Assembly: GCA_965232115.1 (NCBI GenBank)
Contig: OZ246958.1
Location: 960,076 to 1,024,075 of the forward strand
From: Candidatus Poribacteria bacterium
GTDB lineage: Bacteria; Poribacteria; WGA-4E; WGA-3G
Direction of reading: 5' to 3'
Length of the DNA: 64,000 nt
Shown: positions 6,089 through 35,563 of the stretch, one piece after another
How the letters are laid out: every line of letters starts with the position of its first letter
Position numbering within the stretch: the first letter of the stretch is position 1
Program-made: the position numbers and the translations under genes
The notes under the pieces: generated by a model
What the model was told of the DNA's origin: nothing
The model's input: the letters and a program-made list of their open reading frames with translations, nothing else
Databases searched by the model: none

Positions 6089-6313
6089 CTATTCCTCCAA
6101 TTCATCAATCTTCCGATATGCTATCCTATTAATCAAGACATTTAGAAATGTGAGCAGAATTACCGCAAAAGCTCCTATTAGGAAAAGAAACGAATTAACT
6201 TTCCCATAATTTTGGACTAGCCAAGCGATTAAAGAAATATCAGTAGCGAGCAAAATAGCAAATATAACCTTTAACCAACCAATTTCTTCTTTGAGTTTAT
6301 CAATTCGTCCCAT
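6089..6313 (-). CDS. Small two-TM membrane protein (74 aa), hypothetical
   Basis: It has hydrophobic segments FAILLATDISLIAWLV and FLFLIGAFAVILLTFLNVLI. It is coupled to the downstream 35-aa peptide. Confidence 0.35.
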   Translation of the reverse strand: MGRIDKLKEEIGWLKVIFAILLATDISLIAWLVQNYGKVNSFLFLIGAFAVILLTFLNVLINRIAYRKIDELEE

Positions 6314-6414
6314 GTTGATCCATCATTTTTTGAATTGGGAAAAAACAACCTTTCTACAAATATTATACCTTAAAAATAGAACCTTGTGCAAGACAAAACA
6401 GAATTGTGGGAAAT

Positions 6415-7927: not shown

Positions 7928-9439
7928 CTATATCGCCTGTAGCACGTTGACGAGGTTGGTGACGGACTCTCTGAACATATCAATGGCGAAGTTGGGCCAT
8001 ACACCGAGTACAATCGTGAGGATACCCAGCGGTGCCAACGTCAAGATTTCGCGTCCGTTGATTTCAGGGAGTGCTTCATATTTTGGGTTGAGTGTTCCTA
8101 AGAAAACGCGTTGGAGCGTCCAGAGGAAATAGGCTGCACCGACAACAATACCTATCGTTGATAAGATGGTCAGCATCTTGAATTTGTCGTAAGCACCGAG
8201 TAAGGAGAGTGCTTCCCCGACGAACCCACTCAAGCCGGGCAATCCCAAAGATGCCATGAACGCGAGCGTGGTAATGCCGGTGTAGACTGGCATTTTCGCG
8301 CCGAGACCACCGAACCCATTGATCTCGCGGTGGTGTGCCCTATCGTAGAGAACACCGACGAGCAAGAAGAGCATCCCACTGATGACCCCGTGGTTGAACA
8401 TCTGAAGAATCGCTCCCGTGATGCCTTCTGTATTCCGAGCAGCAAGCCCCAAGATAACGAATCCCATGTGTCCGATACTCGAGTACGCCACCAATTTCTT
8501 GAAATCGGTTTGTGCCAAGGCGCAGAAAGAACCGTAGACGATATTAACGAATCCCAGGATGGCTAAACTGTTTCCCCATGTGCCGGTTCCGTTACAGAAA
8601 AAGTCCATGCCTTGTGGGAACATTGCCATATTAACCCGTACCAATCCGTAGGTTCCCATTTTTAGCAGAATGCCCGCAAGAATAACGCTGATTGCAGTCG
8701 GTGCTTCGACGTGTGCATCGGGGAGCCATGTATGGAACGGGAAGATTGGCACTTTCACGGCAAATCCGATAAAGAAACCGAGGAAGACCCAAATTTGGAA
8801 GTTGAGGTCGTTCAGCGCATGTCCTGCAGTCGCTGCTAAAGTAATAAGGGTTGGGATGTCAAATGTCCGCGCGCCGGGTGCGCCGCTGTTGAGATAGACT
8901 GCGATCATCGCAACCAGCATCAGTACACTGCCGAAGAGTGTGTAAAGGAAAAACTTAATTGCAGCGTATTCACGACGCGGTCCGCCCCACACACCGATAA
9001 GGAAATACATCGGCAGTAGTGTGAGTTCAAAAAAGACGTAGAAAAGGAAGAGATCCAACGCGGCAAAGAAACCCAACATTCCTGTCTCAAGCAACAGGAA
9101 CAGTGCCATGTATGCTTTGATTCCCTTTTCGATGTTCCGCCAGGAGGCAATAACACAGATGGGACCTAAGAGGGCAGTGAGAAGCAGGAGCGTGACACTC
9201 AGACCGTCAATACCGACGTGGTATTGGATATTAAACGCTTGAATCCAAGGGACATTGACAACGTACTGCGTTCCTGCAGCTGATCGGTCGTAGGATATGA
9301 ATAAAGCGACTGCGAGTGCGAGCGGAATGAGCGTAAAGAGGAGCGTAACACGTTTAACGAGTTCCTCTGACTCGCGTGGCAGCAGCAAAACAACAATCAT
9401 CCCGAGCAGCGGGATAAAAATCATTAGGGACAATAACAT
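7928..9439 (-). CDS. nuoM: NADH-quinone oxidoreductase subunit M
   Basis: 503 aa with the NuoM N-terminus MLLSLMIFIPLLGMIVVLLLPRE... Confidence 0.9.
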   Translation of the reverse strand: MLLSLMIFIPLLGMIVVLLLPRESEELVKRVTLLFTLIPLALAVALFISYDRSAAGTQYVVNVPWIQAFNIQYHVGIDGLSVTLLLLTALLGPICVIASWRNIEKGIKAYMALFLLLETGMLGFFAALDLFLFYVFFELTLLPMYFLIGVWGGPRREYAAIKFFLYTLFGSVLMLVAMIAVYLNSGAPGARTFDIPTLITLAATAGHALNDLNFQIWVFLGFFIGFAVKVPIFPFHTWLPDAHVEAPTAISVILAGILLKMGTYGLVRVNMAMFPQGMDFFCNGTGTWGNSLAILGFVNIVYGSFCALAQTDFKKLVAYSSIGHMGFVILGLAARNTEGITGAILQMFNHGVISGMLFLLVGVLYDRAHHREINGFGGLGAKMPVYTGITTLAFMASLGLPGLSGFVGEALSLLGAYDKFKMLTILSTIGIVVGAAYFLWTLQRVFLGTLNPKYEALPEINGREILTLAPLGILTIVLGVWPNFAIDMFRESVTNLVNVLQAI

Positions 9440-9653: not shown

Positions 9654-11927
9654 TTATAACGCCCGGAAAATTAAGATTAACACCACAATTCCTGCCAGTA
9701 CGACGAAAAGATAGGTCTGAATCGCTCCGGTCTGGATCCGACGGACTCTTCCACCGATTGACCATGTAACCTCAGCAACCCGATTAACGAGACCGTCGAC
9801 GATGCGGTTATCGAAAACGCCAACGAATGCGGCGAGGATGTCGCGGGTTACTTTTCCAACACCGTTGACGATGCCGTCAACGATAGTTCCATCAAATTGG
9901 GCAAAGAGTCGAGATTTCCATACTGTCACAGCGACTAAGACACCGTCGTAAAACTCGTCAAAGTAGTATTTGTGCCAGAAGAGATTATAAAGCGGTCGGA
10001 ACGTTGTTGCGACAGACTCAGCAGACAAGGTACGTCTATGGTAGAACAGCCATGACAGCAGTATGCCTAATCCGGCGACGATGATGGATAAGACCATCGC
10101 GATCGTGTGTGATGGTCCGTGTCCATGATGTGCGTCATCTCCGTGTGCGCCGTGTGTGTCGTCTGTGCCTTCTTCCGCTGCCACGGCTTCAGAGATTCCG
10201 AAGAGTGAGAAGGTGAGACCGGCTTCACCGACTTTGCTATCGGGTGAAACGTATGCATGTGTTGGTGCATGGAGATGCGGTTGTGCTGGTGGTTTAACGT
10301 AATCTGCGTTGAACCAGAGCGTGTTAACGACCGGAAAACTCAGGACAGCCAAGACGAGGAGCGGCGCGGTCATGCTCTTAGGGGACTCGTGTGCCATGTC
10401 GTGCATTTCTTGATTGCGCGGTTCACCAAAAAAGGTCATGAAGATGAGACGGAACATATAGAACGCCGTAATCCCAGCGGCAAAGAGTGCCATGCCGAAC
10501 AGGAGATAGTGGTGTACGGAGTTCCATTCCATTGCGCGACCGAGCACGCCGGCTAAGATTGCGTCCTTACTCCAGAAACCGGAGAAGATAAACGGGACAC
10601 CGGAGATCGACAACGTTGCGATGAGCATCGTTATGAAAGTAATCGGCATCTTATGGCGAAGGCCGCCCATGTTCCGCATATCTTGATCTGGCGGAATCTC
10701 AGGAATGGCTGTCGGCTGTCGGCTTTCAGCCATCAGCAAAGAGGTTTCTGATGAAGCGACCTCCTCTTGCTGACTGCTGACGACTGACTGCTGATGGCTA
10801 TCTTGTGAATGTTCGTGTGCGTGTTCATCGTCATGTCCGTGACCGTGCATCGCATGAAAGGCGTGGATAACGCTGCCGGAGCCGAGGAAAAGCAGTGCCT
10901 TGAAAAAAGCGTGCGTTGTGAGGTGAAAGAGTCCTGCGACATAGCTGCCAACGCCAATTCCAAGCATCATGTACCCCAACTGGCTGACTGTGGAGTATGC
11001 CAAGACGCGCTTGATGTCAAAGCGGACGATAGCGATAGTCGCAGCAATAATTGCTGTGATACCACCGATATAGGCGATGACCAGAGATGAGGTTTCTGTC
11101 AAGATTGGGAACATCCGAGCCGTGAGATAGACCCCAGCGGCAACCATTGTTGCGGCGTGAATCAGTGCACTGACAGGTGTAGGACCTTCCATTGCATCGG
11201 GCAACCAAGTATGTAGAGGGACTTGCGCGGATTTACCGACCGCCCCACAGAAAATGAGCACACCGGCAATAGAGAGCCAGACCATATCGCCTGTGTTTAA
11301 TTGGGATGCGGCTTCGGCGAAAATACCGCTTTCTCCGTAGAGTGAAAGCGTATCGAATTTAGTGAAAAGCATCATCATGCCGATGAACATACCGACATCG
11401 CCGACGCGCGTCGTCAGGAACGCCTTTTTGCAGGCATCCGCTGCCGAGTCCTTTTCAAACCAGAAACCGATGAGCAGATAGGAGCAGAGACCGACGAGTT
11501 CCCAACCGATGTAGATACCGAGCAGGTTATCCGATACAACCAAGAAGAGCATCGAGAAGGAGAAAAGCGAAAGGAAAGCAAAAAACCGTGGATACCTCGG
11601 ATCGCCGTGCATGTAGCCCATGGAGAAGATATGGACAAGGCTACTGACGAGCGTGACAACAATCAGCATGATTGCGGTAACGCTATCAAGGTAAAAACCC
11701 ATTGAGAAGGTAACACTACCGAGCGAAAGCCACTGAACAGTATGGGGTTCTGGATCGGGGACGACCTCTTGCAAGAGCAGAAGCGAGCAGACGAGTGCGA
11801 TGAGCATCGCTACTGTAGATAGGTAGTCCTGTCGGGGGAAACTCCGTTTCGCTAAGCCCAAAAGTCCGAAGATCGCGAAGGCAGCGAGGGGACAGAGCAA
11901 GATGAGACTGATTAAGAGTACAACCAT
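9654..11927 (-). CDS. nuoL: NADH-quinone oxidoreductase subunit L (elongated, 757 aa, with His-rich loop insertions)
   Basis: It has a conserved NuoL N-terminus and TM core (GWELVGLCSYLLIGFWFEKDSAADACKKAF). Two His-rich inserts are present (HAMHGHGHDDEHAHEH..., THGAHGDDAHHGHGPSH). Confidence 0.9.
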   Translation of the reverse strand: MVVLLISLILLCPLAAFAIFGLLGLAKRSFPRQDYLSTVAMLIALVCSLLLLQEVVPDPEPHTVQWLSLGSVTFSMGFYLDSVTAIMLIVVTLVSSLVHIFSMGYMHGDPRYPRFFAFLSLFSFSMLFLVVSDNLLGIYIGWELVGLCSYLLIGFWFEKDSAADACKKAFLTTRVGDVGMFIGMMMLFTKFDTLSLYGESGIFAEAASQLNTGDMVWLSIAGVLIFCGAVGKSAQVPLHTWLPDAMEGPTPVSALIHAATMVAAGVYLTARMFPILTETSSLVIAYIGGITAIIAATIAIVRFDIKRVLAYSTVSQLGYMMLGIGVGSYVAGLFHLTTHAFFKALLFLGSGSVIHAFHAMHGHGHDDEHAHEHSQDSHQQSVVSSQQEEVASSETSLLMAESRQPTAIPEIPPDQDMRNMGGLRHKMPITFITMLIATLSISGVPFIFSGFWSKDAILAGVLGRAMEWNSVHHYLLFGMALFAAGITAFYMFRLIFMTFFGEPRNQEMHDMAHESPKSMTAPLLVLAVLSFPVVNTLWFNADYVKPPAQPHLHAPTHAYVSPDSKVGEAGLTFSLFGISEAVAAEEGTDDTHGAHGDDAHHGHGPSHTIAMVLSIIVAGLGILLSWLFYHRRTLSAESVATTFRPLYNLFWHKYYFDEFYDGVLVAVTVWKSRLFAQFDGTIVDGIVNGVGKVTRDILAAFVGVFDNRIVDGLVNRVAEVTWSIGGRVRRIQTGAIQTYLFVVLAGIVVLILIFRAL

Positions 11928-21707: not shown

Positions 21708-24700
21708 ATGCCCCGCATTTTCGATAATATTGACCAACCGTTACTGCCTGCCCTCCAACAAACTCTTGAAACTGCTACACATGCCGACTTTTGCGTCGGT
21801 TATTTCAACCTCCGGGGATGGAGAGGGCTCGGCTCTTACATCCAAAATTGGAGGGGTGGCGATGGTGAATGTTGTCGTCTACTCGTCGGCATGCAGCGAC
21901 TGCCTGAAGATGAACTTCGCGAAGCCAAACGACTTGCTCAGCAGCGCGGTGGAATTGATAACCAAACCGCACTTCGCCTCAAACGTAGATTGGCAGCGGA
22001 GTTCCGCGAACAACTGCCCGTGGGGGTGCCGACACGGACGGACGAAATCGGTTTGCGCCAATTGGCACAGCAGCTTCGCGACGAGAAGGTCAAGGTAAAA
22101 CTCTTCCTTCGATACCCGCTTCACGCAAAACTCTATCTCATCTATCGCGCTGACACGATTACGCCAACAGTCGGTTATCTCGGCAGTAGCAACCTGACCC
22201 TGTCTGGGCTTTCACTACAGGGAGAACTTAACATTGACGTTGTTGATGCCGATGCTTGTGAGAAGTTAGCGGATTGGTTTGAAGACCGATGGGAAGATCG
22301 ATGGTGTATTGATATTTCTAAGGAACTGGTCGAAATTATTGAGGAAAGTTGGGCGCGTGAGGCACGCATTCCGCCGTATCATATCTATATCAAAATGGCG
22401 TATCACTTGTCGCAGGAAGCACGCGCCGGGTTAACGGAATTTCAGATTCCTCGTGAATTTCAAGACAAACTCTTTGAATTCCAGACCGCTGCCGTGAAAA
22501 TTGCCGCACATCACCTCAATAGACGCGGTGGTGTACTCATCGGTGATGTTGTCGGTCTCGGTAAGACCCTGATGGGAACTGCACTGGCACGTATACAAGA
22601 AGATGATTATGATCTCGACACACTAATTATATGTCCGAGGAATCTTGTTGATATGTGGGAAAACTATCGGGAGGCATATCGTTTGCGCGGACGGGTTCTC
22701 TCGATTAGCCGAGTCATCAACGATCTCCCGGAACTTCGACGGTATCGACTCGTTATGATTGACGAAAGCCATAACCTCAGGAACCGTGAGGGTAAACGCT
22801 ATCGCGCCATTCAGGAGTATATCCAGCAAAATGAGAGCAAGGTTATCCTCCTTTCGGCAACGCCCTATAATAAAACCTATCTTGATCTCTCTAACCAACT
22901 CCGTCTCTTTGTGGACGAAACTGAGGACCTCGGCATTCGACCGGAACAATACATCAAGGCGTTAGGCGGCGAACTCCAGTTTAGACGGAAGCATCAAAGC
23001 GGTGTCCGAACGCTTTCGGCGTTTGAACAGAGCGAGTATATTGACGATTGGCGGGAATTGATGCGTCGGTATCTCGTGCGCCGTACCCGCAGTTTTATCA
23101 GGGAAAACTATGCCGCAACAGACCCTAAAACAGATAGGAAATTCCTCTCCTTTCCTGATGGCAGGCACTCCTATTTCCCTACACGTCGACCGAAAACCGT
23201 CCAGTTCACGATCGATGACCAAAACCCTGAAGATACCTACGCCCAGCTGTATTCGTCTGCTGTTGTGAACATAATTAGCAATCTCAAGTTAGCGCGATAT
23301 GGACTCGCCAATTACGAGATCAGTGAACATTCATCGGAATCTCTTTCTCAAAATGAGAGGACAATACTGGAAAACCTTTCTCGTGGTGGACAACGGTTAA
23401 TGGGATTTTGCCGAACCAACCTTTTCAAACGCCTGGAAAGTAGTGGGCAAGCGTTCATTCAATCTGTTGATCGGCACATTCTTCGCAATTATATCTTCCT
23501 TCACGCCATTGAGAATGACGAACCGCTACCTATCGGTGGGCAAGATGCCGAAATGCTTGATACCCGGTTTGAAGATAGAGATACCGATGATGCCAATCTT
23601 ATCGTGGATGCTTTTGGTGATGAGGATGATACAGAGATTAATGGGATCGATTCGCCATATAGTGGATATACAGCCGATGCATACAAACAGCGCGCTGCCG
23701 AGATTTATGGGCTTTACGAGACGCGGTATCAAAGCCGATTTAAATGGATCCGTTCAAATCTCTTCCATTCAATGCTTCGCGAAGATCTCACGGATGACGC
23801 GATCGCACTCACTGAAATCTTGAAACAATACGGGACATGGGACCCCGAAAAAGACGTAAAACTTAACGCGCTGCAAAACCTTTTAACCCAGACACACCGT
23901 AAGGAGAAGGTCCTCGTTTTCACCCAGTTCGCGGATACGGTGCAGTATCTGACAGATGCGCTCTCAGAACGCGGCCTCACGCAAATTGCCGCTGCAACCG
24001 GCAGCTCAGCAGATCCGACGGGATTGGCGTGGCGATTCAGTCCTGTGAGCAACGATAAACGGCGTAGAATTAAGCCCCAAGACGAGTTGCGGATACTCAT
24101 CAGCACAGATGTTCTGAGTGAGGGGCAGAATCTGCAAGACTGTTCAATCGTCGTCAACTACGACCTACCGTGGGCTATCATACGCCTTGTGCAGCGCGCG
24201 GGTAGGGTTGACCGGATTGGGCAAACCGCTGAAGAAATTTTATGCTATTCGTTTCTACCCGCCGAAGGTGTAGAACGCATTATTGATTTACGTGGACGCG
24301 TCCGCGCACGCCTCCAGCAGAACAGAGAGGTCATTGGCACGGACGAAGCCTTCTTTGAAGATGACGGTGATGAGGGCAATGAGACAATCGTTAATCTCTA
24401 TAATGAACAGGCAGGTTTGCTTGATGATGAGCAAGATAACGATGTCGATCTCGCCTCTCATGTGTATCAGATTTGGAAAAATGCGATTACGCAGGATCCA
24501 CACTTAGAGAAAGTTATTTCAGAACTTCCTTCTGTCGTTTATTCGACCCGACCGCACGTCCCTAACGATAATGCCCCGGAAGGTGCTCTCGTCTATATCC
24601 GTACAGGGCAAGAAAATGACGCACTTGCATGGATAGACCGGGATGGGCAGAGCGTCACGGAATCCCAATTTGCGATTCTTCAAGCCGCGGCTTGCCAACC

Positions 24701-25112
24701 GGATACTGAAGGACTCCTCCCCCTTGAAGGGCATCACCGTCTCGTAGAAGAAGCCGCGAGGCTAATCGTCTCTGAGGAGCGGTCGGTTGGCGGGCAACTT
24801 GGACGACCATCGGGGGCGCGTTTCCGGACTTATGAACGTTTGAAAGATTACGCCTCTGAAGTGGAAGGCTCGTTGTTTGTGGATATGCAGAAACTTGAAA
24901 GAGTCATTCAAGCGATCTACCGGCACCCACTCCGTCAAACAGCAACCGACTCCCTCAATCGCCAACTCCGCAGTGGTGTCTCCAATGAAGACCTCGCAGC
25001 ACGCGTTATAGAGTTATGGGAGGACGAGCGACTCTGTATTATTGAGGAAGAACGCCAAACACGAGAACCACAGATCGTTTGCTCGCTGGGACTTCGCGCA
25101 GATGATGCCTAA
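21708..25112 (+). CDS. HKD (PLD-like/NgoFVII-like) nuclease domain fused to SNF2-family helicase, 1134 aa
   Basis: It has a single N-terminal HKD motif (PLHAKLYLIY...GSSNLT). SNF2 motifs are present: VVGLGKTLMG, LVMIDESHNLRN, LLSATPYNKT. The helicase C-terminal domain carries ILISTDVLSEGQNLQD and QRAGRVDRIGQ. Confidence 0.85.
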   Translation: MPRIFDNIDQPLLPALQQTLETATHADFCVGYFNLRGWRGLGSYIQNWRGGDGECCRLLVGMQRLPEDELREAKRLAQQRGGIDNQTALRLKRRLAAEFREQLPVGVPTRTDEIGLRQLAQQLRDEKVKVKLFLRYPLHAKLYLIYRADTITPTVGYLGSSNLTLSGLSLQGELNIDVVDADACEKLADWFEDRWEDRWCIDISKELVEIIEESWAREARIPPYHIYIKMAYHLSQEARAGLTEFQIPREFQDKLFEFQTAAVKIAAHHLNRRGGVLIGDVVGLGKTLMGTALARIQEDDYDLDTLIICPRNLVDMWENYREAYRLRGRVLSISRVINDLPELRRYRLVMIDESHNLRNREGKRYRAIQEYIQQNESKVILLSATPYNKTYLDLSNQLRLFVDETEDLGIRPEQYIKALGGELQFRRKHQSGVRTLSAFEQSEYIDDWRELMRRYLVRRTRSFIRENYAATDPKTDRKFLSFPDGRHSYFPTRRPKTVQFTIDDQNPEDTYAQLYSSAVVNIISNLKLARYGLANYEISEHSSESLSQNERTILENLSRGGQRLMGFCRTNLFKRLESSGQAFIQSVDRHILRNYIFLHAIENDEPLPIGGQDAEMLDTRFEDRDTDDANLIVDAFGDEDDTEINGIDSPYSGYTADAYKQRAAEIYGLYETRYQSRFKWIRSNLFHSMLREDLTDDAIALTEILKQYGTWDPEKDVKLNALQNLLTQTHRKEKVLVFTQFADTVQYLTDALSERGLTQIAAATGSSADPTGLAWRFSPVSNDKRRRIKPQDELRILISTDVLSEGQNLQDCSIVVNYDLPWAIIRLVQRAGRVDRIGQTAEEILCYSFLPAEGVERIIDLRGRVRARLQQNREVIGTDEAFFEDDGDEGNETIVNLYNEQAGLLDDEQDNDVDLASHVYQIWKNAITQDPHLEKVISELPSVVYSTRPHVPNDNAPEGALVYIRTGQENDALAWIDRDGQSVTESQFAILQAAACQPDTEGLLPLEGHHRLVEEAARLIVSEERSVGGQLGRPSGARFRTYERLKDYASEVEGSLFVDMQKLERVIQAIYRHPLRQTATDSLNRQLRSGVSNEDLAARVIELWEDERLCIIEEERQTREPQIVCSLGLRADDA

Positions 25113-25222: not shown

Positions 25223-25444
25223 ATGAACTTAACTTCACAAAGCATATTGGAGTCATTCAATCAACTCCCTGAAGTAGAAAAACATGAACTCGCCTCTGAA
25301 ATCATAAGGAGCGTAGTTATGCTAAATTTTCCACCTTTAACAGATGAAGCACTCGCCGAAGTTGCTGATGCTCTTTTCATTGAACACGAAGAGATGGAGG
25401 CAAATGATGCCCAAGCCGAAACGAGGGGAAGTTTGGCTGGTTGA
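25223..25444 (+). CDS. Putative antitoxin (MazE/PemI-like partner), 73 aa
   Basis: It is a small acidic ORF with GGAGG 7 nt upstream of ATG. Its 3' end overlaps the MazF-like gene. Confidence 0.4.
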   Translation: MNLTSQSILESFNQLPEVEKHELASEIIRSVVMLNFPPLTDEALAEVADALFIEHEEMEANDAQAETRGSLAG

Positions 25445-25724
25445 CCTCGGTATGGTTGCAAAAGTTAGACCTTGCCTTGTTATAAGCACTCCTGCTCTTG
25501 TGCAAGACCGCGCCCTTGTTACCGTGGTGACCCATACAACCGCTTCGCGTCGCTCAAGGTTTGAGGTCTTTGTAGAAACAAGATTTCTAAATGCCACTGG
25601 TGTTTTTGACGCACAGAGTTTAATTACTGTCTCAGAAGCGAAATGTTTGAAAAAATTGGGAGATCTTCTGCCCTCCCAATTATCTGCAGTTGAAGATGCA
25701 GTGCGTCAATGGCTAAACCTTTAA
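25404..25724 (+). CDS. MazF/PemK-family endoribonuclease toxin
   Basis: From the internal Met it reads MMPKPKRGEVWLVDLGMVAKVRPCLVIS...VTVVTHTTASRRSRFEVFVE, matching MazF/PemK motifs. Confidence 0.65.
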   Translation: MMPKPKRGEVWLVDLGMVAKVRPCLVISTPALVQDRALVTVVTHTTASRRSRFEVFVETRFLNATGVFDAQSLITVSEAKCLKKLGDLLPSQLSAVEDAVRQWLNL

Positions 25725-25747: not shown

Positions 25748-28700
25748 ATGCTGAACCTCCAAGAAACACGCCAATACCTCAGAGAATCCGACTTTGAAAA
25801 CCTCTTTACACAACAACTCGGTTGGGAGTATCACACCCAAACCCTCAACATCGCAGTAGACGAAACCGAATATCAACTCACCGCAATCGCTGAAAAACGC
25901 GGGGTGATTGTCTTTGAGTGTCCAGCAATTGAAACCGACGGACGCATCCCCGATTACGCCACCCGCCGCAAGATCCAAAAACAGGTCGCCAAATCCGCCC
26001 ACGAACACTTTATCATCTACACCGACGCTGACAAAACCATACAGATATGGCAGTGGGTCAAACGGGAACAAGGCAAACCCGACGCCTGTCGTGAACACCG
26101 CTATAACAGCAACGAACACTCCGGCGAATCCCTCATTCAAAAATTGCGCGATATTGTTTTTACGCTTGACGAAGAAGAGGAACTTGGGCTCTTCGGCGTA
26201 ATAGGAAGAGTTCAGACTGCTTTCGACGTTGAAAAGGTCACCAAAAAATTCTATGACCATTTTAAAAGAGAACATACCGCGTTCCTCAAATTCCTCAAAG
26301 GGGTGCCCGATGATGATATGCAAAAGTGGTATGTCTCTGTAATGCTCAATCGTCTAATGTTCATCTACTTCATTCAGAAGAAAAGTTTCCTTGATAACAA
26401 CGAAAATTATCTGCATGCCAAACTGGTACGGAGCCAAGCGAACGGGACCAACCGATACTACAAAGACTTCCTTTGTCCCCTTTTCTTTGAAGGGTTCGCC
26501 AAGCCAGAAAACGAGCGGAGCAGAGAGATGAAACGTCTGCTCGGCAAAATCCCGTATCTCAACGGCGGTATCTTTCAAAAACATCAACTGGAGACACTTC
26601 ACGGCGAAAACATTGAGATCCCCGACAAGGCATTTGAACAGATTTTCAAATTCTTTGAGCAATACCAGTGGCACCTTGATGACCGTCCGCTACGGAACGA
26701 TAACGAGATTAACCCCGATGTACTTGGTTATATCTTTGAAAAGTACATCAACCAGAAACAGATGGGTGCCTACTACACCAAAGAGGACATCACGGAGTAC
26801 ATCAGCAAAAATACCATCATTCCGTTTCTCTTTGACAAGGCGAGAAAGGCTTGTAAAATCGCATTTGAAGGCGATGCTTCTGTGTGGCAACTCCTGCAAG
26901 ACGACCCTGGCCGCTACATCTACGATGCTGTCAAAAAAGGTGTCAGAGAACAACTCCCACCAGAAATCGCTGCTGGCATCAACGATATTTCCAAACGTAC
27001 CGAGTGGAATGAACTTGCACCCGATAAATACGCCTTACCGACAGAAATTTGGCGCGAGACCGTCGCACGGCAGCAACGTTGTAAAACCCTCCAAGGCAAA
27101 CTCGCAAACGGGGAAATAGACAACATCAACGATCTGATTACCTATAACTTGAACATCCGCCAATTCGCGCAGGATGTCATTGAAAATTGTGAGGGACCTG
27201 AGTTACTCCGCGCCTTCTGGAAATCCATCACTGAGGTGACAATTCTTGATCCTACCTGTGGTTCCGGTGCGTTTCTCTTTGCTGCCTTGAATATCCTTGA
27301 ACCGCTTTATGAGGCGTGTCTTGATCGGATGCAAGTTTTTCTTGACGAGGTACGCGCGGTTTCCGAATCGCGATCCTCCCGTAGATACAGGGACTTCCGC
27401 GAACTCCTTGACCGCATTGAGGAGCATCCGAATCGCAAGTATTTTATCCTCAAATCCATTATCATTAATAACCTCTACGGTGTAGACATCATGGACGAAG
27501 CAGTTGAGATTTGCAAGCTCCGTCTCTTCCTCAAAATGATCGCACAGATTGAGGATGTCCGACGGATTGAACCGCTGCCAGACATCGACTTCAACGTTCA
27601 GGCAGGCAATACCCTTGTCGGCTATGCGACTTATGATGCGGTGGAAAGACCGGAGAAAGGTAGGTTTGATTTTGAGAATGCAATGGTGCGTATTAAAGAA
27701 AAGGCTGAGGACGTGAAAATTCTATTTCAAGAATTTCGCAGACAACAGACAACATTAGGCGGTGCCGTGACACCAGCCGATAAACAGAACTTGCAGAGTA
27801 GACTCCAAGAATTAGAAGATGAACTCAACTTATATCTTGCCGACGAGTATGGCGTTGATCCGAACAAACAATCTGATTACGAAAAGTGGTTGAATTCACA
27901 CAAACCTTTTCACTGGTTTATTGCGTTTTATGGTATTCTCGAAGACGGTGGATTTGATGTGATTATTGGTAACCCGCCGTATAAGGAGTATAGGGAGGTC
28001 AAGAAGCAATACACAGTAAAAGGATACAAGACCGAAGATTGTGGGAATTTGTATCCGATGTCTATTGAAAGGTCTTTCGACTTGAGCAAGGGATCGGTAG
28101 GAATGATTGTTCAACTGCCTTTAGTATGCACCGATCGTATGATTTCAGCACAATCGCTTTTTAAGACTCAAAATAGGAAAAGTTGGTTTGCCAATTTCGA
28201 TGACAGACCCGGAAAACTCTTTGACGATCTTCAGCATATACGAGCTACTATTTTTCTTTCTAAGAAAGAAGTGAATCTGAATACAGCAACAGTGTATTCC
28301 ACGCAATATAAAAGATGGTTCACAGAAACCCGTTCAACTCTGTTTCAAGGAATATTTTATGCAAATATAACGAATATCTGCCTTAAAGGTATATTTCCTA
28401 AGATAGCGGGTTGCGTTGGGAAAAGTATTGTCAACAAACTCAAGAATACAAAGAAAGCCTTTTTGAGTTTTAAGACTGGAAAATTCGCCTGCCGTTTTCA
28501 CAATTCGCCTCAATACTGGATTCGCGCCACCGATTTTGTTCCCTACTTCTGGAATGAACGGGACGGAAAAAAACAGTCCCAGCAAATAAAGGATCTACGT
28601 TTCAGCAAAAAGGAAAACGCCTTTGCGTTTTGCTGCTTACTCAACAGTTCTTTGTTTTATTGGTGGTTTATCATTTCCTCCGATTGCCGACATCTTAATA

Positions 28701-28996
28701 TGAGAGAAATTGTCAATTTTTCTTTTACTCCCGAGAATTTAAATCAGATGCAGTTGATTCAATTGTCCAAAATAACGGAAGAACTAATGGAGGACTATCG
28801 TAAGCACGCAAATCGCAAAGAAACAAACTACAAAACCACTGGTAAAGTAATCTATGATGAGTTTTTTCCCCGTCACTCCAAATCCATCATAGACAAAATT
28901 GACCGTGTGCTTGCCGAACACTACGGCTTCACAGACGAGGAATTGGATTTCATCATCAACTATGATATTAAGTATCGTATGGGGTTAGGAAATTGA
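25748..28996 (+). CDS. Gamma-class N6-adenine DNA methyltransferase with large N- and C-terminal extensions (MmeI/PglX/Eco57I-like), 1082 aa
   Basis: It has motif X-like GAYYTKEDIT, motif I ILDPTCGSGAFLFAAL and motif IV VIIGNPPYKEY. The upstream helix RLMFIYFIQKKSFL resembles the MmeI/PglX family. A long C-terminal target-recognition region follows. Confidence 0.85.
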   Translation: MLNLQETRQYLRESDFENLFTQQLGWEYHTQTLNIAVDETEYQLTAIAEKRGVIVFECPAIETDGRIPDYATRRKIQKQVAKSAHEHFIIYTDADKTIQIWQWVKREQGKPDACREHRYNSNEHSGESLIQKLRDIVFTLDEEEELGLFGVIGRVQTAFDVEKVTKKFYDHFKREHTAFLKFLKGVPDDDMQKWYVSVMLNRLMFIYFIQKKSFLDNNENYLHAKLVRSQANGTNRYYKDFLCPLFFEGFAKPENERSREMKRLLGKIPYLNGGIFQKHQLETLHGENIEIPDKAFEQIFKFFEQYQWHLDDRPLRNDNEINPDVLGYIFEKYINQKQMGAYYTKEDITEYISKNTIIPFLFDKARKACKIAFEGDASVWQLLQDDPGRYIYDAVKKGVREQLPPEIAAGINDISKRTEWNELAPDKYALPTEIWRETVARQQRCKTLQGKLANGEIDNINDLITYNLNIRQFAQDVIENCEGPELLRAFWKSITEVTILDPTCGSGAFLFAALNILEPLYEACLDRMQVFLDEVRAVSESRSSRRYRDFRELLDRIEEHPNRKYFILKSIIINNLYGVDIMDEAVEICKLRLFLKMIAQIEDVRRIEPLPDIDFNVQAGNTLVGYATYDAVERPEKGRFDFENAMVRIKEKAEDVKILFQEFRRQQTTLGGAVTPADKQNLQSRLQELEDELNLYLADEYGVDPNKQSDYEKWLNSHKPFHWFIAFYGILEDGGFDVIIGNPPYKEYREVKKQYTVKGYKTEDCGNLYPMSIERSFDLSKGSVGMIVQLPLVCTDRMISAQSLFKTQNRKSWFANFDDRPGKLFDDLQHIRATIFLSKKEVNLNTATVYSTQYKRWFTETRSTLFQGIFYANITNICLKGIFPKIAGCVGKSIVNKLKNTKKAFLSFKTGKFACRFHNSPQYWIRATDFVPYFWNERDGKKQSQQIKDLRFSKKENAFAFCCLLNSSLFYWWFIISSDCRHLNMREIVNFSFTPENLNQMQLIQLSKITEELMEDYRKHANRKETNYKTTGKVIYDEFFPRHSKSIIDKIDRVLAEHYGFTDEELDFIINYDIKYRMGLGN

Positions 28997-29115: not shown

Positions 29116-29958
29116 TTAAGATAAGTTTTGTCTCTCAAATTCGGCTGGAGTCAGATACCCTAACGCCGAGTGAGGACGTTTCTGATGATACACCTGTCTG
29201 ATAAAATGCCCAATGCGGGTTCTCGCTTCATGGATGTCCTGATAGTCGTTGAGACAAACTTCTGCTTCCTTGAGCGTTCGGATCAACCTTTCGGCGTATC
29301 CGTTCTCCCAAGGACACCCGCTGCGCGCTACCGAAATCTGAATACCGTGTGCTTTGAGTATTGAGAGATACGCCTTTGAAAGATACTGCGCGCCTTGATC
29401 GGAATGATGGATCTCTGGAGACCCGCTTTGGTCTAAGGCTGTCTCCAAGGGTTTCAAAGTCAGTGATTGCGTCAAGTGTGGACCCAGATGCCACGCTCTT
29501 ATCATCCGAGTGAAAACATCCATGAGCAAAGCGAGATAGATGAAGCGTCTGTTGAGACGGACGTAGGTAATATCACCGACCCAGACCTGATCGGCTCGAG
29601 AGACTTCAAGCCCCTGAACTCTATTGACCCAGGGGATTTCACCTTCAAGGGATCTCGTGGTTTGACAGGTCCGTTTCACTGATACACACAGGTGTGCTGC
29701 TTTCATCAACCGAGCAATACGTCGATACCCAACGCGGTATCCCATACGCACCAATAACTTCGTGATACGTCGATACCCATACTTTGGATATCGCAGGGCT
29801 AACGCCTCTATTTCCGCTCGGAGCTCGGCTTCAGAAGGGTCGCTTTTCGGTTGATAATAGAACAGGTTCGGGTTGAAACCCAGCACCTGAGAAATCTCTC
29901 GCACCGAATGTTGCGTCCGCAACTTCTCAACGAGGCATCGCTGTTGAGACGGTGTCAC
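29116..29958 (-). CDS. IS3-family transposase OrfB (DDE integrase core)
   Basis: It contains HSDQGAQYLS...ENGYAERLIRTLKEAEV (DDE / rve domain). Confidence 0.8.
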   Translation of the reverse strand: MTPSQQRCLVEKLRTQHSVREISQVLGFNPNLFYYQPKSDPSEAELRAEIEALALRYPKYGYRRITKLLVRMGYRVGYRRIARLMKAAHLCVSVKRTCQTTRSLEGEIPWVNRVQGLEVSRADQVWVGDITYVRLNRRFIYLALLMDVFTRMIRAWHLGPHLTQSLTLKPLETALDQSGSPEIHHSDQGAQYLSKAYLSILKAHGIQISVARSGCPWENGYAERLIRTLKEAEVCLNDYQDIHEARTRIGHFIRQVYHQKRPHSALGYLTPAEFERQNLS

Positions 29959-30240
29959 TCCAAGAAAGTCAATGCTTTTTTTTCGATGTCCATTGCCACG
30001 GCCATTCTCCCAACGAGGCGTTCAAGGTGCGCGATACGCTCAGCATCCTTGCTTGCTTGCTAATCCGTGGAGACAAACAGCGTCGCCACATTTTCAACGA
30101 CTTGCTGCTTCCACTTCGAGAGCTGTTGTTCGCTGAGGTTATGGTGTCTACACAGTTCTGCTTGCGAAGTTTCACCACGGGGTGCCTCAAGCACGACTTC
30201 TGCTTTAAACTCGGGGGTGAAGTTTCTTCGTTTTGCCATC
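29956..30240 (-). pseudogene. IS3 orfA (HTH/leucine-zipper) interrupted by an in-frame TAG
   Basis: It reads MAKRRNFTPEFKAEVVLEAPRGETSQAELCRHHNLSEQQLSKWKQQVVENVATLFVSTD-TAG-QASKDAERIAHLERLVGRMAVAMDIEKKALTFLE, with the amber codon at 30061-30063. The slippery sequence A AAA AAA G is intact downstream. Confidence 0.6.
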
Positions 30241-30512: not shown

Positions 30513-30664
30513 TTAGTTTGCGTCTTCAGATGCACAACTTAACAGGTTATGCTACAAACTGGCAACTTGGGTTATGTTTACTGTAAATAATTTAAATTAT
30601 TGCCTCAATTGTCAACTTATGTTAAAATAATTCGTCAAAGTGTATAGAGAAGATAAATTAAACT

Positions 30665-31489
30665 GTGCGAAAACAATTAAGCGAAACAGGTTCTAAACAT
30701 CCAATGAAAACAACACAATCCACCATAATATATGAGAACCCGCCTATTGACGAGATCGTTTGCGGTATACGCTTCGATCCAATTAAGCAGTTACAATCGG
30801 GGCATTTCGGTGTGCTATGGCAAAAGTTCAGAAGCGATTTTCCGATGACCGAAGACCAAATCATAGTGGGGCCTGTGTCCGAAGAAGATTTTGGAAGCCC
30901 TGACAAGTTTCCATTACCAAGGGTCTGGTTCATACACGAAAACGAAAACGGACTTATCCAAGTACAACGGAACCGCTTCCTTCATAATTGGCGAAAAAGA
31001 CGACCAGAGGATAAATATCCGGGTTACGAAAAAGTTGTCGAGGACTTTGAAAAATATCTATTTGGTTTCCAAGAATTTCTGTTAGAGGAAAACTTAGGGA
31101 ATCTTGTACCAAGGGAATACGAATTAACATATATTGACCTCATTCCCAAAGGACACGGGTGGGAAAATCCTGGCAATTTGGAAAATATTTTCCCAAACTT
31201 ATTATCTCTCACAAGACAGGGCATACCTTTAAACAATGTAAGAGGTATCAATTGGCAAACTATCTTAGATTTACCAGGCAGCTTGGGACAGTTAAGAACC
31301 TCAATTCGTAGTGCCCGTCGGATTTCTGACAATCAAGAAGTCCTTCACATGGAATTTAACGCACTAAGTGACCAACCATATCAACCGAGGCAAACCTGGT
31401 TTGAAGATGCACATAATGCAATTACCAACCTTTTTACTTCTCTTGTGAACGACGAAATTCAAGAGAAGTTTTGGGGGCGAAAATCGTGA
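30665..31489 (+). CDS. Hypothetical protein A of the AT-rich three-gene operon (274 aa; GTG start, alternative ATG at 30704)
   Basis: It is a long ORF in a region of lower GC with no recognisable catalytic motif. Its stop overlaps the next start as GTGA. Confidence 0.5.
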   Translation: MRKQLSETGSKHPMKTTQSTIIYENPPIDEIVCGIRFDPIKQLQSGHFGVLWQKFRSDFPMTEDQIIVGPVSEEDFGSPDKFPLPRVWFIHENENGLIQVQRNRFLHNWRKRRPEDKYPGYEKVVEDFEKYLFGFQEFLLEENLGNLVPREYELTYIDLIPKGHGWENPGNLENIFPNLLSLTRQGIPLNNVRGINWQTILDLPGSLGQLRTSIRSARRISDNQEVLHMEFNALSDQPYQPRQTWFEDAHNAITNLFTSLVNDEIQEKFWGRKS

Positions 31490-31938
31490 GAACTCGCTAC
31501 ACACAAGAAGCAACAACAATAAATAGGGATATAGTCTTTCCATCTCTCCATGGTGAAGCGGAAAAGTTGGATATTTTAAAACCTTTCCAGCAAAGCGTGA
31601 AAACAAGGTCTGGATTTGGCACTACTGTAGCAGTAATAGTTGGAAGTGCAATTTTCCTGCTCGGTGAAAGTGGAACATCAGACATCCCAGAACCTTTCGC
31701 GCAAGACCCAAGTGCATCCCTTGAATTAAACTTTGGCGAAAAGATAGAATCTGGCGTAACCCAAGATTTTGCAGATATACGACAGCAACTACCTCCTTTT
31801 CCAGTCTATAATGAAGAGGATATTCTTAACCTGGATGCTGATATAATCACTCCTCGGTGTGAATTTAGCACAATACGAGTTAAATTGATATACGAAGAAC
31901 CAAGTAAACCAACTCCGGTTGAGGATCCTTGGGAATAA
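31486..31938 (+). CDS. Hypothetical protein B (about 150 aa; GTG start overlapping the stop of A)
   Basis: There is a GTGA start/stop overlap. It has a central hydrophobic segment (FGTTVAVIVGSAIFLLG). Confidence 0.45.
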   Translation: MRTRYTQEATTINRDIVFPSLHGEAEKLDILKPFQQSVKTRSGFGTTVAVIVGSAIFLLGESGTSDIPEPFAQDPSASLELNFGEKIESGVTQDFADIRQQLPPFPVYNEEDILNLDADIITPRCEFSTIRVKLIYEEPSKPTPVEDPWE

Positions 31939-31954
31939 TAAACATCTGTTCCTT

Positions 31955-32491
31955 ATGAATATTGTGAAAACAACTTATCCTTGGTATTGTTTGGTAGATA
32001 GTGATGAAATAGAGCAAGGAGATATTCTGGAAGGTTGTCCTATATTTCTTCCACCGGCCAATTTGACCCTAAATTCCTTAGAAGCAAATTTCAGGTTGAC
32101 ACGACGGAATGTGATCGTTATGTCCCAAAGTTGTGATATGGTTAAGGGTAGAGAAAAAATCACCCAGGTCTTGCTCTGCTTTTTATGGAATCGTTCAGAA
32201 TACACACAGGGACATTTAGCTACGAACAAAGGTATGGAAGAAGCACGTAGGGGGCAACTTCCAGCTCATCACCTGCTAAACGAGTGTGAATTACCTAATG
32301 CAGAAAGAGAATTCAGAATTGTTGACTTTCACAATACTTACACGCTTCCGTTAGATTTTTGTAGGGCGTTTGTGGGAGAATCCCAAAATCGTATTCGGTT
32401 GCTCCCTCCATACCGAGAACATCTCTCTCAGGCTTTTGCCCGTTTTTTCATGCGGGTTGGCTTACCTACCGATATTCCCGCGTTCAGATGA
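31955..32491 (+). CDS. Hypothetical protein C (about 178 aa from MNIVKTTYPWYC; possible TTG start at 31919)
   Basis: The ORF ends with TGATAA immediately before the methyltransferase 3' remnant. It has several Cys residues (WYC, EGCP, SQSCD). Confidence 0.45.
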   Translation: MNIVKTTYPWYCLVDSDEIEQGDILEGCPIFLPPANLTLNSLEANFRLTRRNVIVMSQSCDMVKGREKITQVLLCFLWNRSEYTQGHLATNKGMEEARRGQLPAHHLLNECELPNAEREFRIVDFHNTYTLPLDFCRAFVGESQNRIRLLPPYREHLSQAFARFFMRVGLPTDIPAFR

Positions 32492-32521
32492 TAACCCGAT
32501 CTGACCTTGTCCTCGCCCAAC

Positions 32522-32599
32522 CACTACGGCTTCACTGATGAAGAATTAGACTTCATCACCAACTACGACATCAAATATCGGGTGGGTTTAGGGAATTGA
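32522..32599 (+). pseudogene. Remnant of the last 25 codons of a second MmeI/PglX-like methyltransferase gene
   Basis: It translates as HYGFTDEELDFITNYDIKYRVGLGN-stop, compared with HYGFTDEELDFIINYDIKYRMGLGN-stop at 28919-28996. The two are about 83% identical at the nucleotide level, with mostly synonymous differences. Stop codons lie immediately upstream in the same frame. Confidence 0.6.
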
Positions 32600-33223: not shown

Positions 33224-33460
33224 GATTTTTACACAATACGGTTGCACGTATTCCCAACTTCTGTTAAAATTGTATGCAAAAGGAGCAGGACTTACGCAAT
33301 TTTGACCGTAATGCATGCTGTGAGATAGGAATTCTTGGACAAACATAAACGTTTGGAAGGCACGGATTGGGAAACCCAACCCCTACACCGGTTATGCTAC
33401 AAAAGAGCAGCATACGTAAGTGCTAAGGAGTCCTAAACATATTGTGAGACCTGAAAAATT

Positions 33461-34843
33461 ATGGAAATCACTGATCTCAAACAATACATTGCACAAGGCG
33501 AAAATGCCACGACCGAATTCAAAGAAAACTTCGATCAGGAAGCCATTGAGACCGCTGCTGCGTTTGCCAATACCGACGGTGGCACTGTTCTTATAGGTGT
33601 GTCTGATAGCGGAGAAATTAGGGGAATTACTATCGGCAAAGAGACCCTAAGAAATTGGTCAAACCGAATTGACCAAGCGACTGAGCCACGGGTGAATATA
33701 GAAGTTGGAGTCGTTGGCGTGGAAGGGAAATTGGTGCTGTGGATACGTGTTGCAGAGTGCTCGATAAAACCTGTCTCTGTTAAAGGACGGTGCTATAAAA
33801 GAGTAGGGAATAGCAACCGCGTCATGTCTCCCCAAGAGATTGCCCAGATGCACCTTGATGCCACTGGACACACCTGGGATGGTCTCTTAGTTACACGCGC
33901 TGGCATGGATGATATAGATGAGAAAAAAGTTGAGTGGTACCTCACCCGTCGAGAGACAATCCGAAATGTGTCTAAACCGCAAGGTATGAGCATGGCAGCA
34001 TTTTTGAAAAACATTAATGGTGTCGGCGATGATGGCACGCCAACCCACGCTGGCCTTCTTTTTTTCAGTAAGCACCCCCAACGCAGATTCTTCTACAACG
34101 CACAATTACGGGTCGTTAGGTTCAAGGGAACATCCGTTCTCCATCCGGTCATTGATCGCGTTGACTGCTTTGAAACCTTATGGGAGAACGTTAATACCGC
34201 TGAGGAATTCATAAGAAGAAACATCCGCCTTCTCAGTTTTCGGACCTCAAGGAGTTTCCAACGCGATGATAAGTTTGAATACCCACTTAATGCACTACGA
34301 GAGGCGATTATCAACGCCTTGATTCATCGCGACTATCAAGAAACCGCGGATGTCCGCGTTTTCATATTTGACAATCGCGTTGAGATCATTAACCCCGGCA
34401 CTTTTCCAGAAGGTGTTAGCCCAGATGAACCGACTCACAAACCGGTGAACCCTACTTTGAGTCAATTCATGTTTGATATTGGTTTTATTGAACGGTACGG
34501 TGCTGGTATCAGAATGATGCGAAGACTCTGTGAGGAGTGGGGAAACAAAGCACCGCGTTATGTATTTCACCCGCTTGAGACGAAAATCATCTTTGATTCC
34601 CCGATTCAAGAGAGCACTTTTATAGAAATCGATGATATTTCAGAGCAGTTGAACGAGCGTCAAAAGAAGGCTCTATTTTATGTAGAAAATAACGGGCAAA
34701 TTGCGACAAAAGAGTACGTAGAGCTCAACAATGTCTCGCGCCGGGTTGCCTATGAGGAACTAAAAAACATGGCTGATAAAGGTTTATTACACGTAATAGG
34801 CAAGGGAAGAGGAACCAAGTACGTACAAAAAGTAAGCGATTAG
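33461..34843 (+). CDS. Schlafen/AlbA_2-like divergent ATPase with HATPase_c_4 and C-terminal HTH (often misannotated as RecG-like)
   Basis: AlbA_2 N-terminus TTEFKENFDQEAIETAAAFANTDGGTVLIGVSDSGEIRGI. The later motif ALREAIINALIHRDY is typical of this family. Confidence 0.8.
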   Translation: MEITDLKQYIAQGENATTEFKENFDQEAIETAAAFANTDGGTVLIGVSDSGEIRGITIGKETLRNWSNRIDQATEPRVNIEVGVVGVEGKLVLWIRVAECSIKPVSVKGRCYKRVGNSNRVMSPQEIAQMHLDATGHTWDGLLVTRAGMDDIDEKKVEWYLTRRETIRNVSKPQGMSMAAFLKNINGVGDDGTPTHAGLLFFSKHPQRRFFYNAQLRVVRFKGTSVLHPVIDRVDCFETLWENVNTAEEFIRRNIRLLSFRTSRSFQRDDKFEYPLNALREAIINALIHRDYQETADVRVFIFDNRVEIINPGTFPEGVSPDEPTHKPVNPTLSQFMFDIGFIERYGAGIRMMRRLCEEWGNKAPRYVFHPLETKIIFDSPIQESTFIEIDDISEQLNERQKKALFYVENNGQIATKEYVELNNVSRRVAYEELKNMADKGLLHVIGKGRGTKYVQKVSD

Positions 34844-34921: not shown

Positions 34922-35563
34922 GTGATGCAACCCGTTCAAGTTATCAGACGAACAGACACGAATTATCCAGCAGGATTGGAGCGGTATTTAAAAACAGAAA
35001 CTCCAGAAACGATCTGGACACGCGGGAATCTCAACTTGTTACCTGGACAAAACACCGCCTTAAATGGAGACCTCTGGGCACTTTTCTGCTCCAGCAAATG
35101 TCCGGGGGAGATCATCCTAAAAGCACACGACTTGGCACAGGAATTTAGAAAAGCAGGCATCCCAACAATCGGTGGGTATCACTCTCCAGTTGAACAGGAG
35201 TGCCTACGCGTTTTACTGCGTGGTTCACAACCGATCCTCGTTTGCCCTGCAAGGAGTATCGAACGGATGCGACCGAAACCGGCGTGGAAGGATGCATTAT
35301 CCCAAGATCGTCTCTTGATTCTGTCTATTTTCGAGAATCAGGAACGAACGACAGCAGCATTGGCGAACCGGCGCAACGCCTTTGTTGCGGCATTTGCTGA
35401 TAATATCTGTATTGCGCATGCTGCAGCGGATAGTAAAATCTTGGAATTTGCGCAGATGATAATCGCTTGGGGTAAATCTGTTTTCACCTTTGACACACCA
35501 GCAAATGACGCACTTTTTCGACTTGGGGCGCGACGGATTGAACCGTCCCTAAGTGTAAAGTAA
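34922..35563 (+). CDS. DprA/Smf-like Rossmann (SLOG superfamily) protein
   Basis: LFCSSKCPGEII...AGIPTIGGYHSPVEQECLRVLLRGSQPILVCPARSIER resembles the DprA core (..S.GLA.GID..AHR.AL..GG.TIAVL..GLD). The assignment is tentative. Confidence 0.45.
   Translation: MMQPVQVIRRTDTNYPAGLERYLKTETPETIWTRGNLNLLPGQNTALNGDLWALFCSSKCPGEIILKAHDLAQEFRKAGIPTIGGYHSPVEQECLRVLLRGSQPILVCPARSIERMRPKPAWKDALSQDRLLILSIFENQERTTAALANRRNAFVAAFADNICIAHAAADSKILEFAQMIIAWGKSVFTFDTPANDALFRLGARRIEPSLSVK

Follow-up and report, generated by a model that had tools for sequence, protein, structure and literature searches.

The window analysed here is a 64,000-nucleotide (nt) stretch of a Candidatus Poribacteria genome (assembly GCA_965232115.1, contig OZ246958.1, positions 960,076 to 1,024,075). 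Inside positions 30665-32491 of the window lie three plus-strand open reading frames (ORFs), called ORF1, ORF2 and ORF3, which may form a tripartite module of the toxin-antitoxin kind. All three are real genes, because each has many protein homologues in the same order, and they lie where a first reading of this DNA, made from the letters of the window, had placed an operon. ORF1 is taken to start at the ATG at 30704, because most homologues are 261-263 amino acids (aa) long and begin there. ORF3 is taken to start at the ATG at 31955, because the N-termini of its homologues align at that position (Table 1). Comparison loci from other genomes and contigs carry L numbers and coordinates of their own.

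The sequence-only reading had the three ORFs joined by overlapping codons. This is true of the first junction, a GTGA at 31486-31489 shared by ORF1 and ORF2, and not of the second, where a 16-nt spacer stands between ORF2 and ORF3 and overlap is absent. The trio is poor in guanine and cytosine (GC), as had been noticed: its GC content is 0.413 against 0.476 for the window, and 1.4% of windows of equal length are equally low. However, the neighbouring methyltransferase gene has a GC content of 0.404 in its 3' part, and the low-GC tract therefore extends beyond the operon.

At the nucleotide level, L007 and L020, two Poribacteria loci, are homologous to the window from about 30600 onward, and homology to relatives ends at about 32604. 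The operon ends at a methyltransferase remnant, as the earlier reading had it, and the remnant lies directly 3' of ORF3 and in frame. ORF3 terminates with TGA TAA, followed in frame by HYGFTDEELDFITNYDIKYRVGLGN and a stop codon. The in-frame translation after ORF3, PDLTLSSPNHYGFTDEELDFITNYDIKYRVGLGN and a stop, copies the C-terminal ~25 residues of the methyltransferase, which is 1082 aa long. At the nucleotide level, 32517-32599 is 81% identical to 28914-28996, the end of the intact type IIG methyltransferase gene. The same junction between ORF3 and the remnant is found in L007 and L008, where homology ends right after the stop codon of the remnant. Remnants also lie 3' of ORF3 in L009, L010, L011, L020 and L023, and in L010 two of them flank the trio (8249-8332 and 10574-10663). 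This arrangement looks like the repeated, Campbell-type insertion of a cassette at the 3' end of a restriction-modification (RM) gene.

Proteins of the trio

The predicted structure of ORF3 is an SH3-like beta-barrel of the MazF/CcdB fold. The model is confident, with a predicted local distance difference test score (pLDDT) of 87.4 and a predicted template modelling score of 0.83; like that of ORF1, it is the model of a monomer. MazF outscores type III toxins as a match. PDB sequence searches with the single sequence and with the family profile found nothing for ORF3, and its tie to MazF, drawn from the model, is at the fold level only. In terms of the MazF/PemK-CcdB superfamily, ORF3 has the predicted fold and a partner gene directly upstream, but the sequence profiles PF02452 (PemK_toxin) and CcdB do not recognize it. 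It is about 65 residues longer than toxins of the MazF, Kid and CcdB type. The ORF3 family comprises 5,243 clusters at 90% identity in a word-indexed search and 2,278 clusters at 50% identity when 1.84 billion representatives were scanned in full with HMMER, and nearly all of these are single-domain proteins of 170-190 aa. The motifs QGD, SQSCD and PPYREHLSQ.FAR.FMRVGLP are invariant, and His156 is nearly so.

ORF1 is a member of TIGR04255, scoring 69 bits against an NCBIfam cut-off of 30 over model positions 2-251 of 252. Its relatives in other trios score 92-130 bits. NCBIfam describes the family as 'sporadically distributed' and of unknown function, and its name was found in no paper in the literature searched. 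The statement that no family could be assigned to the three proteins thus stands for PADLOC, Pfam and PHROGs models and gives way to TIGR04255 for ORF1 and to the predicted MazF/CcdB fold for ORF3. PDB sequence searches with ORF1, both as a single sequence and as a family profile, gave no match. Its AlphaFold model is confident (pLDDT 85.9) and shows a two-fold repeat of a beta-alpha-beta(4)-alpha unit. Across divergent members of TIGR04255, E17, Y105, A236 and F244 are invariant columns and F24, Y143 and W232 are nearly invariant, while position 237 is His in 8 of 10 sequences and Arg in the other two. A conserved Arg/Lys/Asp set for nucleotide binding was not found in this alignment. Since the conserved columns are unlike a nucleotide-using active site, ORF1 is treated here, without certainty, not as an enzyme but as a binding module.

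ORF2 has no match in Pfam, NCBIfam, PADLOC or the PDB, the last of these searched with the single sequence and with the family profile. Conservation across phyla is limited to its C-terminal ~45 residues, whose consensus is EEDhLDWD..PPPRxSGTIxVxLxYxGRxKPxPxxDPWE. The remainder of the protein is variable, except that ORF2 copies situated after a TIGR04255 gene have a short N-terminal motif rich in Thr. A hydrophobic segment had been pointed out in the protein, and ORF2 was considered as a membrane protein and rejected as such: the stretch (Kyte-Doolittle 1.78) is confined to a few close relatives, and it is not conserved even at that distance, with charged residues in its place in L007, L008 and L001.

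Gene order and the two parts of ORF2

Gene order was counted in 95 loci carrying ORF3. A gene of the ORF2 type lies immediately upstream of ORF3 in 78 of them by hidden Markov model. Most of the others have a small gene in which the C-terminal pattern of ORF2 is visible by eye; only L054 is without one, and its genome holds two complete ORF2-ORF3 pairs. In 47 of the 95 loci the gene before ORF2 belongs to TIGR04255. Elsewhere the first gene can be an unrelated, tightly coupled 219-aa gene (9 loci) or a 540-aa gene (3 Poribacteria loci), and the remaining loci are two-gene forms. The conserved core is the ORF2-ORF3 pair, and the first gene is optional or exchangeable. The 219-aa gene was considered as a remote TIGR04255 member, which an hhalign probability of 0.14% leaves unproven. 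The 540-aa gene takes the place of TIGR04255 at the same chromosomal site in L012, L013 and L019 (for example L012 7716-9338), and its protein has no Pfam, NCBIfam or PADLOC match. L015 appears to hold both cassette types in tandem, with a 543-aa ORF at 6243-7874 assigned from its size and position.

The trio order is kept at an ORF3 identity of just 31-45%, in the IMG/VR contigs L093-L096 and L099, and it recurs in all further TIGR04255 look-ups of the ORF1 subfamily (L091, L092, L100, L102 and L104). The sequence-only reading would have been undone by a trio found in no other genome. Since the unit is kept in nearly half of the ORF3 loci, in divergent viral contigs and in the further look-ups, this refutation fails.

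The length of ORF2 varies with what precedes it. Its median frame is 152 aa where TIGR04255 comes first, 159 aa where the 219-aa gene does and 80.5 aa in loci without a first gene, and the difference between loci with and without a first gene is significant (Mann-Whitney p = 4e-9). The short forms are 64-93 aa long, of which ~45 aa are the conserved C-terminal module. ORF2 is a bipartite protein whose N-terminal extension goes with a first gene. Orphan short genes resembling ORF2 also occur without an adjoining ORF3, at L010 12362-12583 and at L015 7901-8137 and 12517-12780 (74-88 aa). The L010 orphan lies 25 nt upstream of a Schlafen/AlbA_2 gene, and one of the L015 orphans is followed by an XRE-like helix-turn-helix ORF.

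Three further observations connect ORF2 to its neighbours. Among 36 classified TIGR04255 loci, 35 have the ORF2 start between -31 and +3 nt from the ORF1 stop, and the remaining one, L056, has it at -87 nt. In L085, ORF1 and ORF2 form a single frame of 333 aa (70-1071) that ends with the C-terminal pattern of ORF2 directly upstream of ORF3, a fusion that may be a sequencing frameshift. Finally, compared with L007, the window is 70-85% identical in nucleotides from ~30600 to ~31800 and then 95-100% identical to 32499. The recombination breakpoint at ~31800 falls inside ORF2, and there are therefore two inherited units, one consisting of ORF1 and the N-terminal part of ORF2 and the other of the C-terminal part of ORF2 and ORF3.

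When one genome per species was scanned, 493 of 185,579 genomes proved to carry relatives of ORF3. The carriers include Poribacteria, Planctomycetota, Acidobacteriota, Verrucomicrobiota, Microcoleus, Spirochaetia, Hydrogenedentota, Chloroflexota and Actinobacteria, together with one metagenome-assembled genome (MAG) each of Competibacteraceae, Alphaproteobacteria and Aenigmatarchaeota. Two or three copies occur in some MAGs. Copies from Poribacteria MAGs match the ORF3 of the window at 98% identity, and decayed copies of the family are present in L002, L023, L080 and L084. Seven IMG/VR contigs carry ORF3. The low GC, the mosaic of recombined parts and a sporadic distribution that takes in many phyla and one archaeon are signs of horizontal movement of the cassette, in line with the acquisition that the first reading had proposed. 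The sporadic distribution, the multiple copies in some genomes, the low GC, the decayed copies and the defence island described below also speak for a selfish or defensive way of life.

TIGR04255 also heads other tightly coupled trios, one on a Mycobacterium plasmid and one on a phage-like contig (Table 1). Genes 2 and 3 of the plasmid and L088 trios showed no relation to ORF2 and ORF3 or to each other.

Genomic neighbourhood

The trio sits here in a genuine defence island (Table 1). A canonical pair of a small antitoxin and PemK follows the PLD+SNF2 helicase and precedes the type IIG RM gene, and PADLOC also matches a PsyrA-like protein among the flanking genes. In several Poribacteria chromosomes the order is helicase, RM, first gene-ORF2-ORF3, tail remnant, Schlafen and DprA. 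An insertion sequence of the IS3 family between the RM gene and the trio is not in the syntenic Poribacteria loci and is a later insertion.

Table 1. Positions of the trio, its flanking genes and other TIGR04255-headed trios
Feature	Position	Strand	Remarks
ORF1	30704-31489	+	261 aa from ATG; alternative GTG at 30665 gives 274 aa
ORF2	31486-31938	+	150 aa; GTG start overlapping the ORF1 TGA
Conserved C-terminal module of ORF2	31786-31935	+	residues ~101-150; proposed ORF3-binding part
ORF3	31955-32491	+	178 aa from ATG
Candidate promoter, left edge of shared cassette	30600-30628	+	TTGCCT-17 nt-TAAAAT with TG; consensus scan only
Methyltransferase-tail remnant, right edge of shared cassette	32495-32599	+	83-nt repeat
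PLD+SNF2 helicase	21708-25112		island gene; PADLOC HKD+Snf2 match
Small acidic 73-aa ORF, antitoxin of MazEF-type pair	25223-25444		overlaps PemK ORF
PemK/MazF toxin ORF	25344-25724		Pfam PF02452, E 2.5e-13
Type IIG restriction-modification enzyme	25748-28996		PADLOC 1150 bits; 1082 aa
IS3 element	29116-30239	-	HTH_Tnp_1 ORF 30060-30239; rve integrase ORF 29116-29958
Schlafen/AlbA_2-HATPase protein	33461-34843		downstream of trio and remnant
DprA-like protein	34922-35563		followed by purF
Other TIGR04255 trio	L087, Mycobacterium paragordonae plasmid NZ_CP025547.1, 79746-81485		261+180+142 aa; adjoins MobF relaxase
Other TIGR04255 trio	L088-L090, phage-like contig		253+191+157 aa

Three side observations concern this neighbourhood. 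In the 3.9-kb contig L008, positions 1106-1276 just upstream of the trio encode the N-terminal 57 residues of the PLD+SNF2 helicase at 95% identity, as though this contig had lost the helicase-RM block. Between 32600 and 33460, ~860 nt contain no ORF of at least 60 aa and no Rfam match; the GC skew is strongly negative (-0.19 to -0.24), and a minus-strand gene may have decayed here. An exact 14-nt direct repeat, GGTTATGCTACAAA, occurs at 30545-30558 and 33390-33403, so that one copy precedes ORF1 by ~150 nt and the other precedes the Schlafen gene by ~60 nt. With at most 2 mismatches it has 3 matches, against 0.29 expected by chance.

A candidate toxin-antitoxin module and its alternatives

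The reading that we favour, at about even odds (0.5), is that the operon is a tripartite, toxin-antitoxin-like module with ORF3 as toxin, ORF2 as antidote or adaptor, and ORF1 as an accessory. Its parts are not equally secure. That ORF2 and ORF3 are a toxin-antitoxin pair is somewhat more probable than the whole, and the role of ORF1 as a holder or sensor is tentative, with the odds leaning slightly against it. In the mechanism that we infer, free ORF3 would arrest growth. The fold makes RNA cleavage the default guess; the conserved residues of ORF3 differ from those of MazF, and its chemistry may therefore differ as well. The acidic, Trp-containing C-terminal ~45 residues of ORF2 would bind and neutralize ORF3. 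MazE, Kis and CcdA neutralize toxins of the same fold through C-terminal tails. The variable N-terminal extension of ORF2 would dock onto ORF1, which may hold, stabilize or monitor ORF2. If ORF1 were lost or titrated, for example by a phage product, ORF2 would decay and ORF3 would be set free. Orphan ORF2 genes are seen and ORF3 is almost never found alone, an asymmetry expected of an antidote and a poison.

The module differs from known systems in several respects. Compared with MazEF, Kis-Kid (PemIK) and CcdAB, ORF2 is without an AbrB or ribbon-helix-helix domain, ORF3 is longer with other conserved residues including Cys, and a TIGR04255 gene is often attached. The closest parallel in logic is provided by toxin-antitoxin-chaperone (TAC) systems. 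As described in PMC5105189, their SecB-like chaperone recognizes a chaperone addiction (ChAD) element on the antitoxin. For CmdTAC, PMC11618068 and bioRxiv 10.1101/2024.02.24.581848 describe a chaperone that also takes part in phage sensing, coupled to toxin release. Like the Mycobacterium tuberculosis HigBA-SecB(TA) and CmdTAC systems, the trio has three genes and, in its proposed antitoxin, a segment that appears only where a third protein is encoded. The likeness of this segment is by analogy only, since the extension of ORF2 is N-terminal and the ChAD is C-terminal. In addition, ORF1 is not SecB-like by sequence or fold, the gene order here is partner-antitoxin-toxin, and the toxin fold differs. 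The trio thus appears analogous to, and not homologous with, TAC systems of the SecB type.

Several observations weigh against the tripartite reading. ORF3 has no match in NCBIfam, PADLOC or PHROGs and, at E <= 1, none in Pfam except an irrelevant CxC2 (0.057), so that a link to MazF/PemK at the level of sequence is missing; hhalign of its family profile against Bacillus subtilis MazF gives a probability of 0.3%. It is 50-70% identical between phyla, which is unusually conserved for a toxin and far more than would be expected of MazF toxins. Of its 6 cysteines, C60 and C111 are invariant and C28 and C75 nearly invariant, and MazF is without them; the description of the third protein as Cys-rich does not hold as it was put. 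No AbrB- or ribbon-helix-helix-type DNA-binding domain was recognized in ORF2 with Pfam, NCBIfam or the PDB, and classical type II autoregulation is therefore missing. The best fold matches of ORF1 are enzymes, namely guanidino kinases, McsB and glutamate-cysteine ligase. No match to ORF3 turned up in 72,556 plasmids or in 50,697 phage genomes. Outside Poribacteria, 32 loci supplied 128 nearest neighbours, mostly housekeeping genes among which no family recurs, and the association with a defence island is therefore not general for the ORF3 family. The earlier view of the trio as defence-island cargo fits the genes that flank it here and does not extend to those loci. A defence role for the module is plausible, though not established by context.

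Four alternatives were considered. The one that survives best, although it is unlikely, is a plain two-component addiction or selfish module of ORF2 and ORF3, in which ORF1 would be a frequent passenger or regulator with no chaperone, sensor or anti-phage role. The pair is universal, about half of the loci lack TIGR04255 and many consist of just a short ORF2 and ORF3, and housekeeping neighbours outside Poribacteria are typical of scattered chromosomal toxin-antitoxin loci. However, a passenger fits poorly with the translational coupling of ORF1 and ORF2, with an N-terminal ORF2 extension that is present only with a first gene, with the fusion in L085, and with the co-inheritance of ORF1 and the N-terminal part of ORF2. 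The persistence of the trio through deep divergence also argues against it, and the absence of ORF3 from the plasmid collection counts against a classical role in plasmid addiction.

Less likely still, there is no toxin system at all, and ORF3 is a MazF-fold RNA-binding protein or a Cys-dependent enzyme with a cellular role, for which ORF1 and ORF2 would be subunits or regulators. This possibility draws on much of the counter-evidence given above: the strong conservation of ORF3 between phyla, its two invariant and two nearly invariant cysteines and nearly invariant His156, the housekeeping neighbours in 32 loci, and the lack of ORF3 in the plasmid and phage collections.

It is improbable that ORF1 is an enzyme like the guanidino kinases or glutamine synthetase that covalently modifies ORF2, ORF3 or a target, in a type VII-like toxin-antitoxin system or a modification-based effector. 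The structural matches that suggest it come with 6-9% sequence identity to the matched kinases, and the half-fold beta-alpha-beta(4)-alpha also occurs in non-enzymes, TBP and Med18/20 among them. The invariant positions E17, Y105, A236 and F244 do not amount to a nucleotide-binding set, and H237 is replaced by Arg in 2 of 10 sequences. A type III system of the ToxIN, CptIN or AbiQ kind, with an RNA antitoxin holding ORF3, is very improbable, because Tandem Repeats Finder reported only three trivial repeats and none between ORF1 and ORF3, no Rfam match was found, the sequence upstream of ORF3 is a conserved protein-coding gene so that the proposed antidote is a protein, and MazF is the better fold match.

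The tripartite reading can also be taken further, although this is doubtful. TIGR04255 may represent an unrecognized class of dedicated partners, either holders resembling chaperones or sensors of infection, that grip the N-terminal extensions of small, bipartite antitoxins and are combined with varied effector pairs. In that case the operon would be an analogue of TAC systems without SecB, and ORF3, with a conserved Cys/Asp/His set replacing the MazF active site, may use a chemistry other than that of the MazF RNase.

None of the three proteins matched any PADLOC-DB v2 family at E <= 1, and none has a Pfam or PHROGs match. The suggestion of an undescribed system is borne out to that extent; the module is probably an undescribed variety of toxin-antitoxin or phage defence rather than a wholly new kind of system. 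New varieties of toxin-antitoxin systems turn up often, and nothing in the module contradicts current understanding. In summary, it is best read, at the level of predicted folds, as a toxin-antitoxin module of the MazF type that includes a third component which is new and modular. Clear and cheaply testable predictions follow from the two-part structure of ORF2 and from a first gene that can be exchanged.

The carriers are mostly uncultured environmental and symbiotic bacteria from Poribacteria, Planctomycetota, Acidobacteriota and Verrucomicrobiota, which are poorly sampled by defence catalogues built on enterobacteria. If the tripartite reading is true, it would give a first functional context to the ORF3 family, with ~2,300 clusters at 50% identity and no Pfam or NCBIfam model. 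It would do the same for TIGR04255, a named family without a literature, to which the present work adds an operon context and a fold prediction. The module would then be a second, evolutionarily independent case of the logic known from TAC systems of the SecB type, in which a toxin is accompanied by an antitoxin with an addiction extension and by a holder protein.

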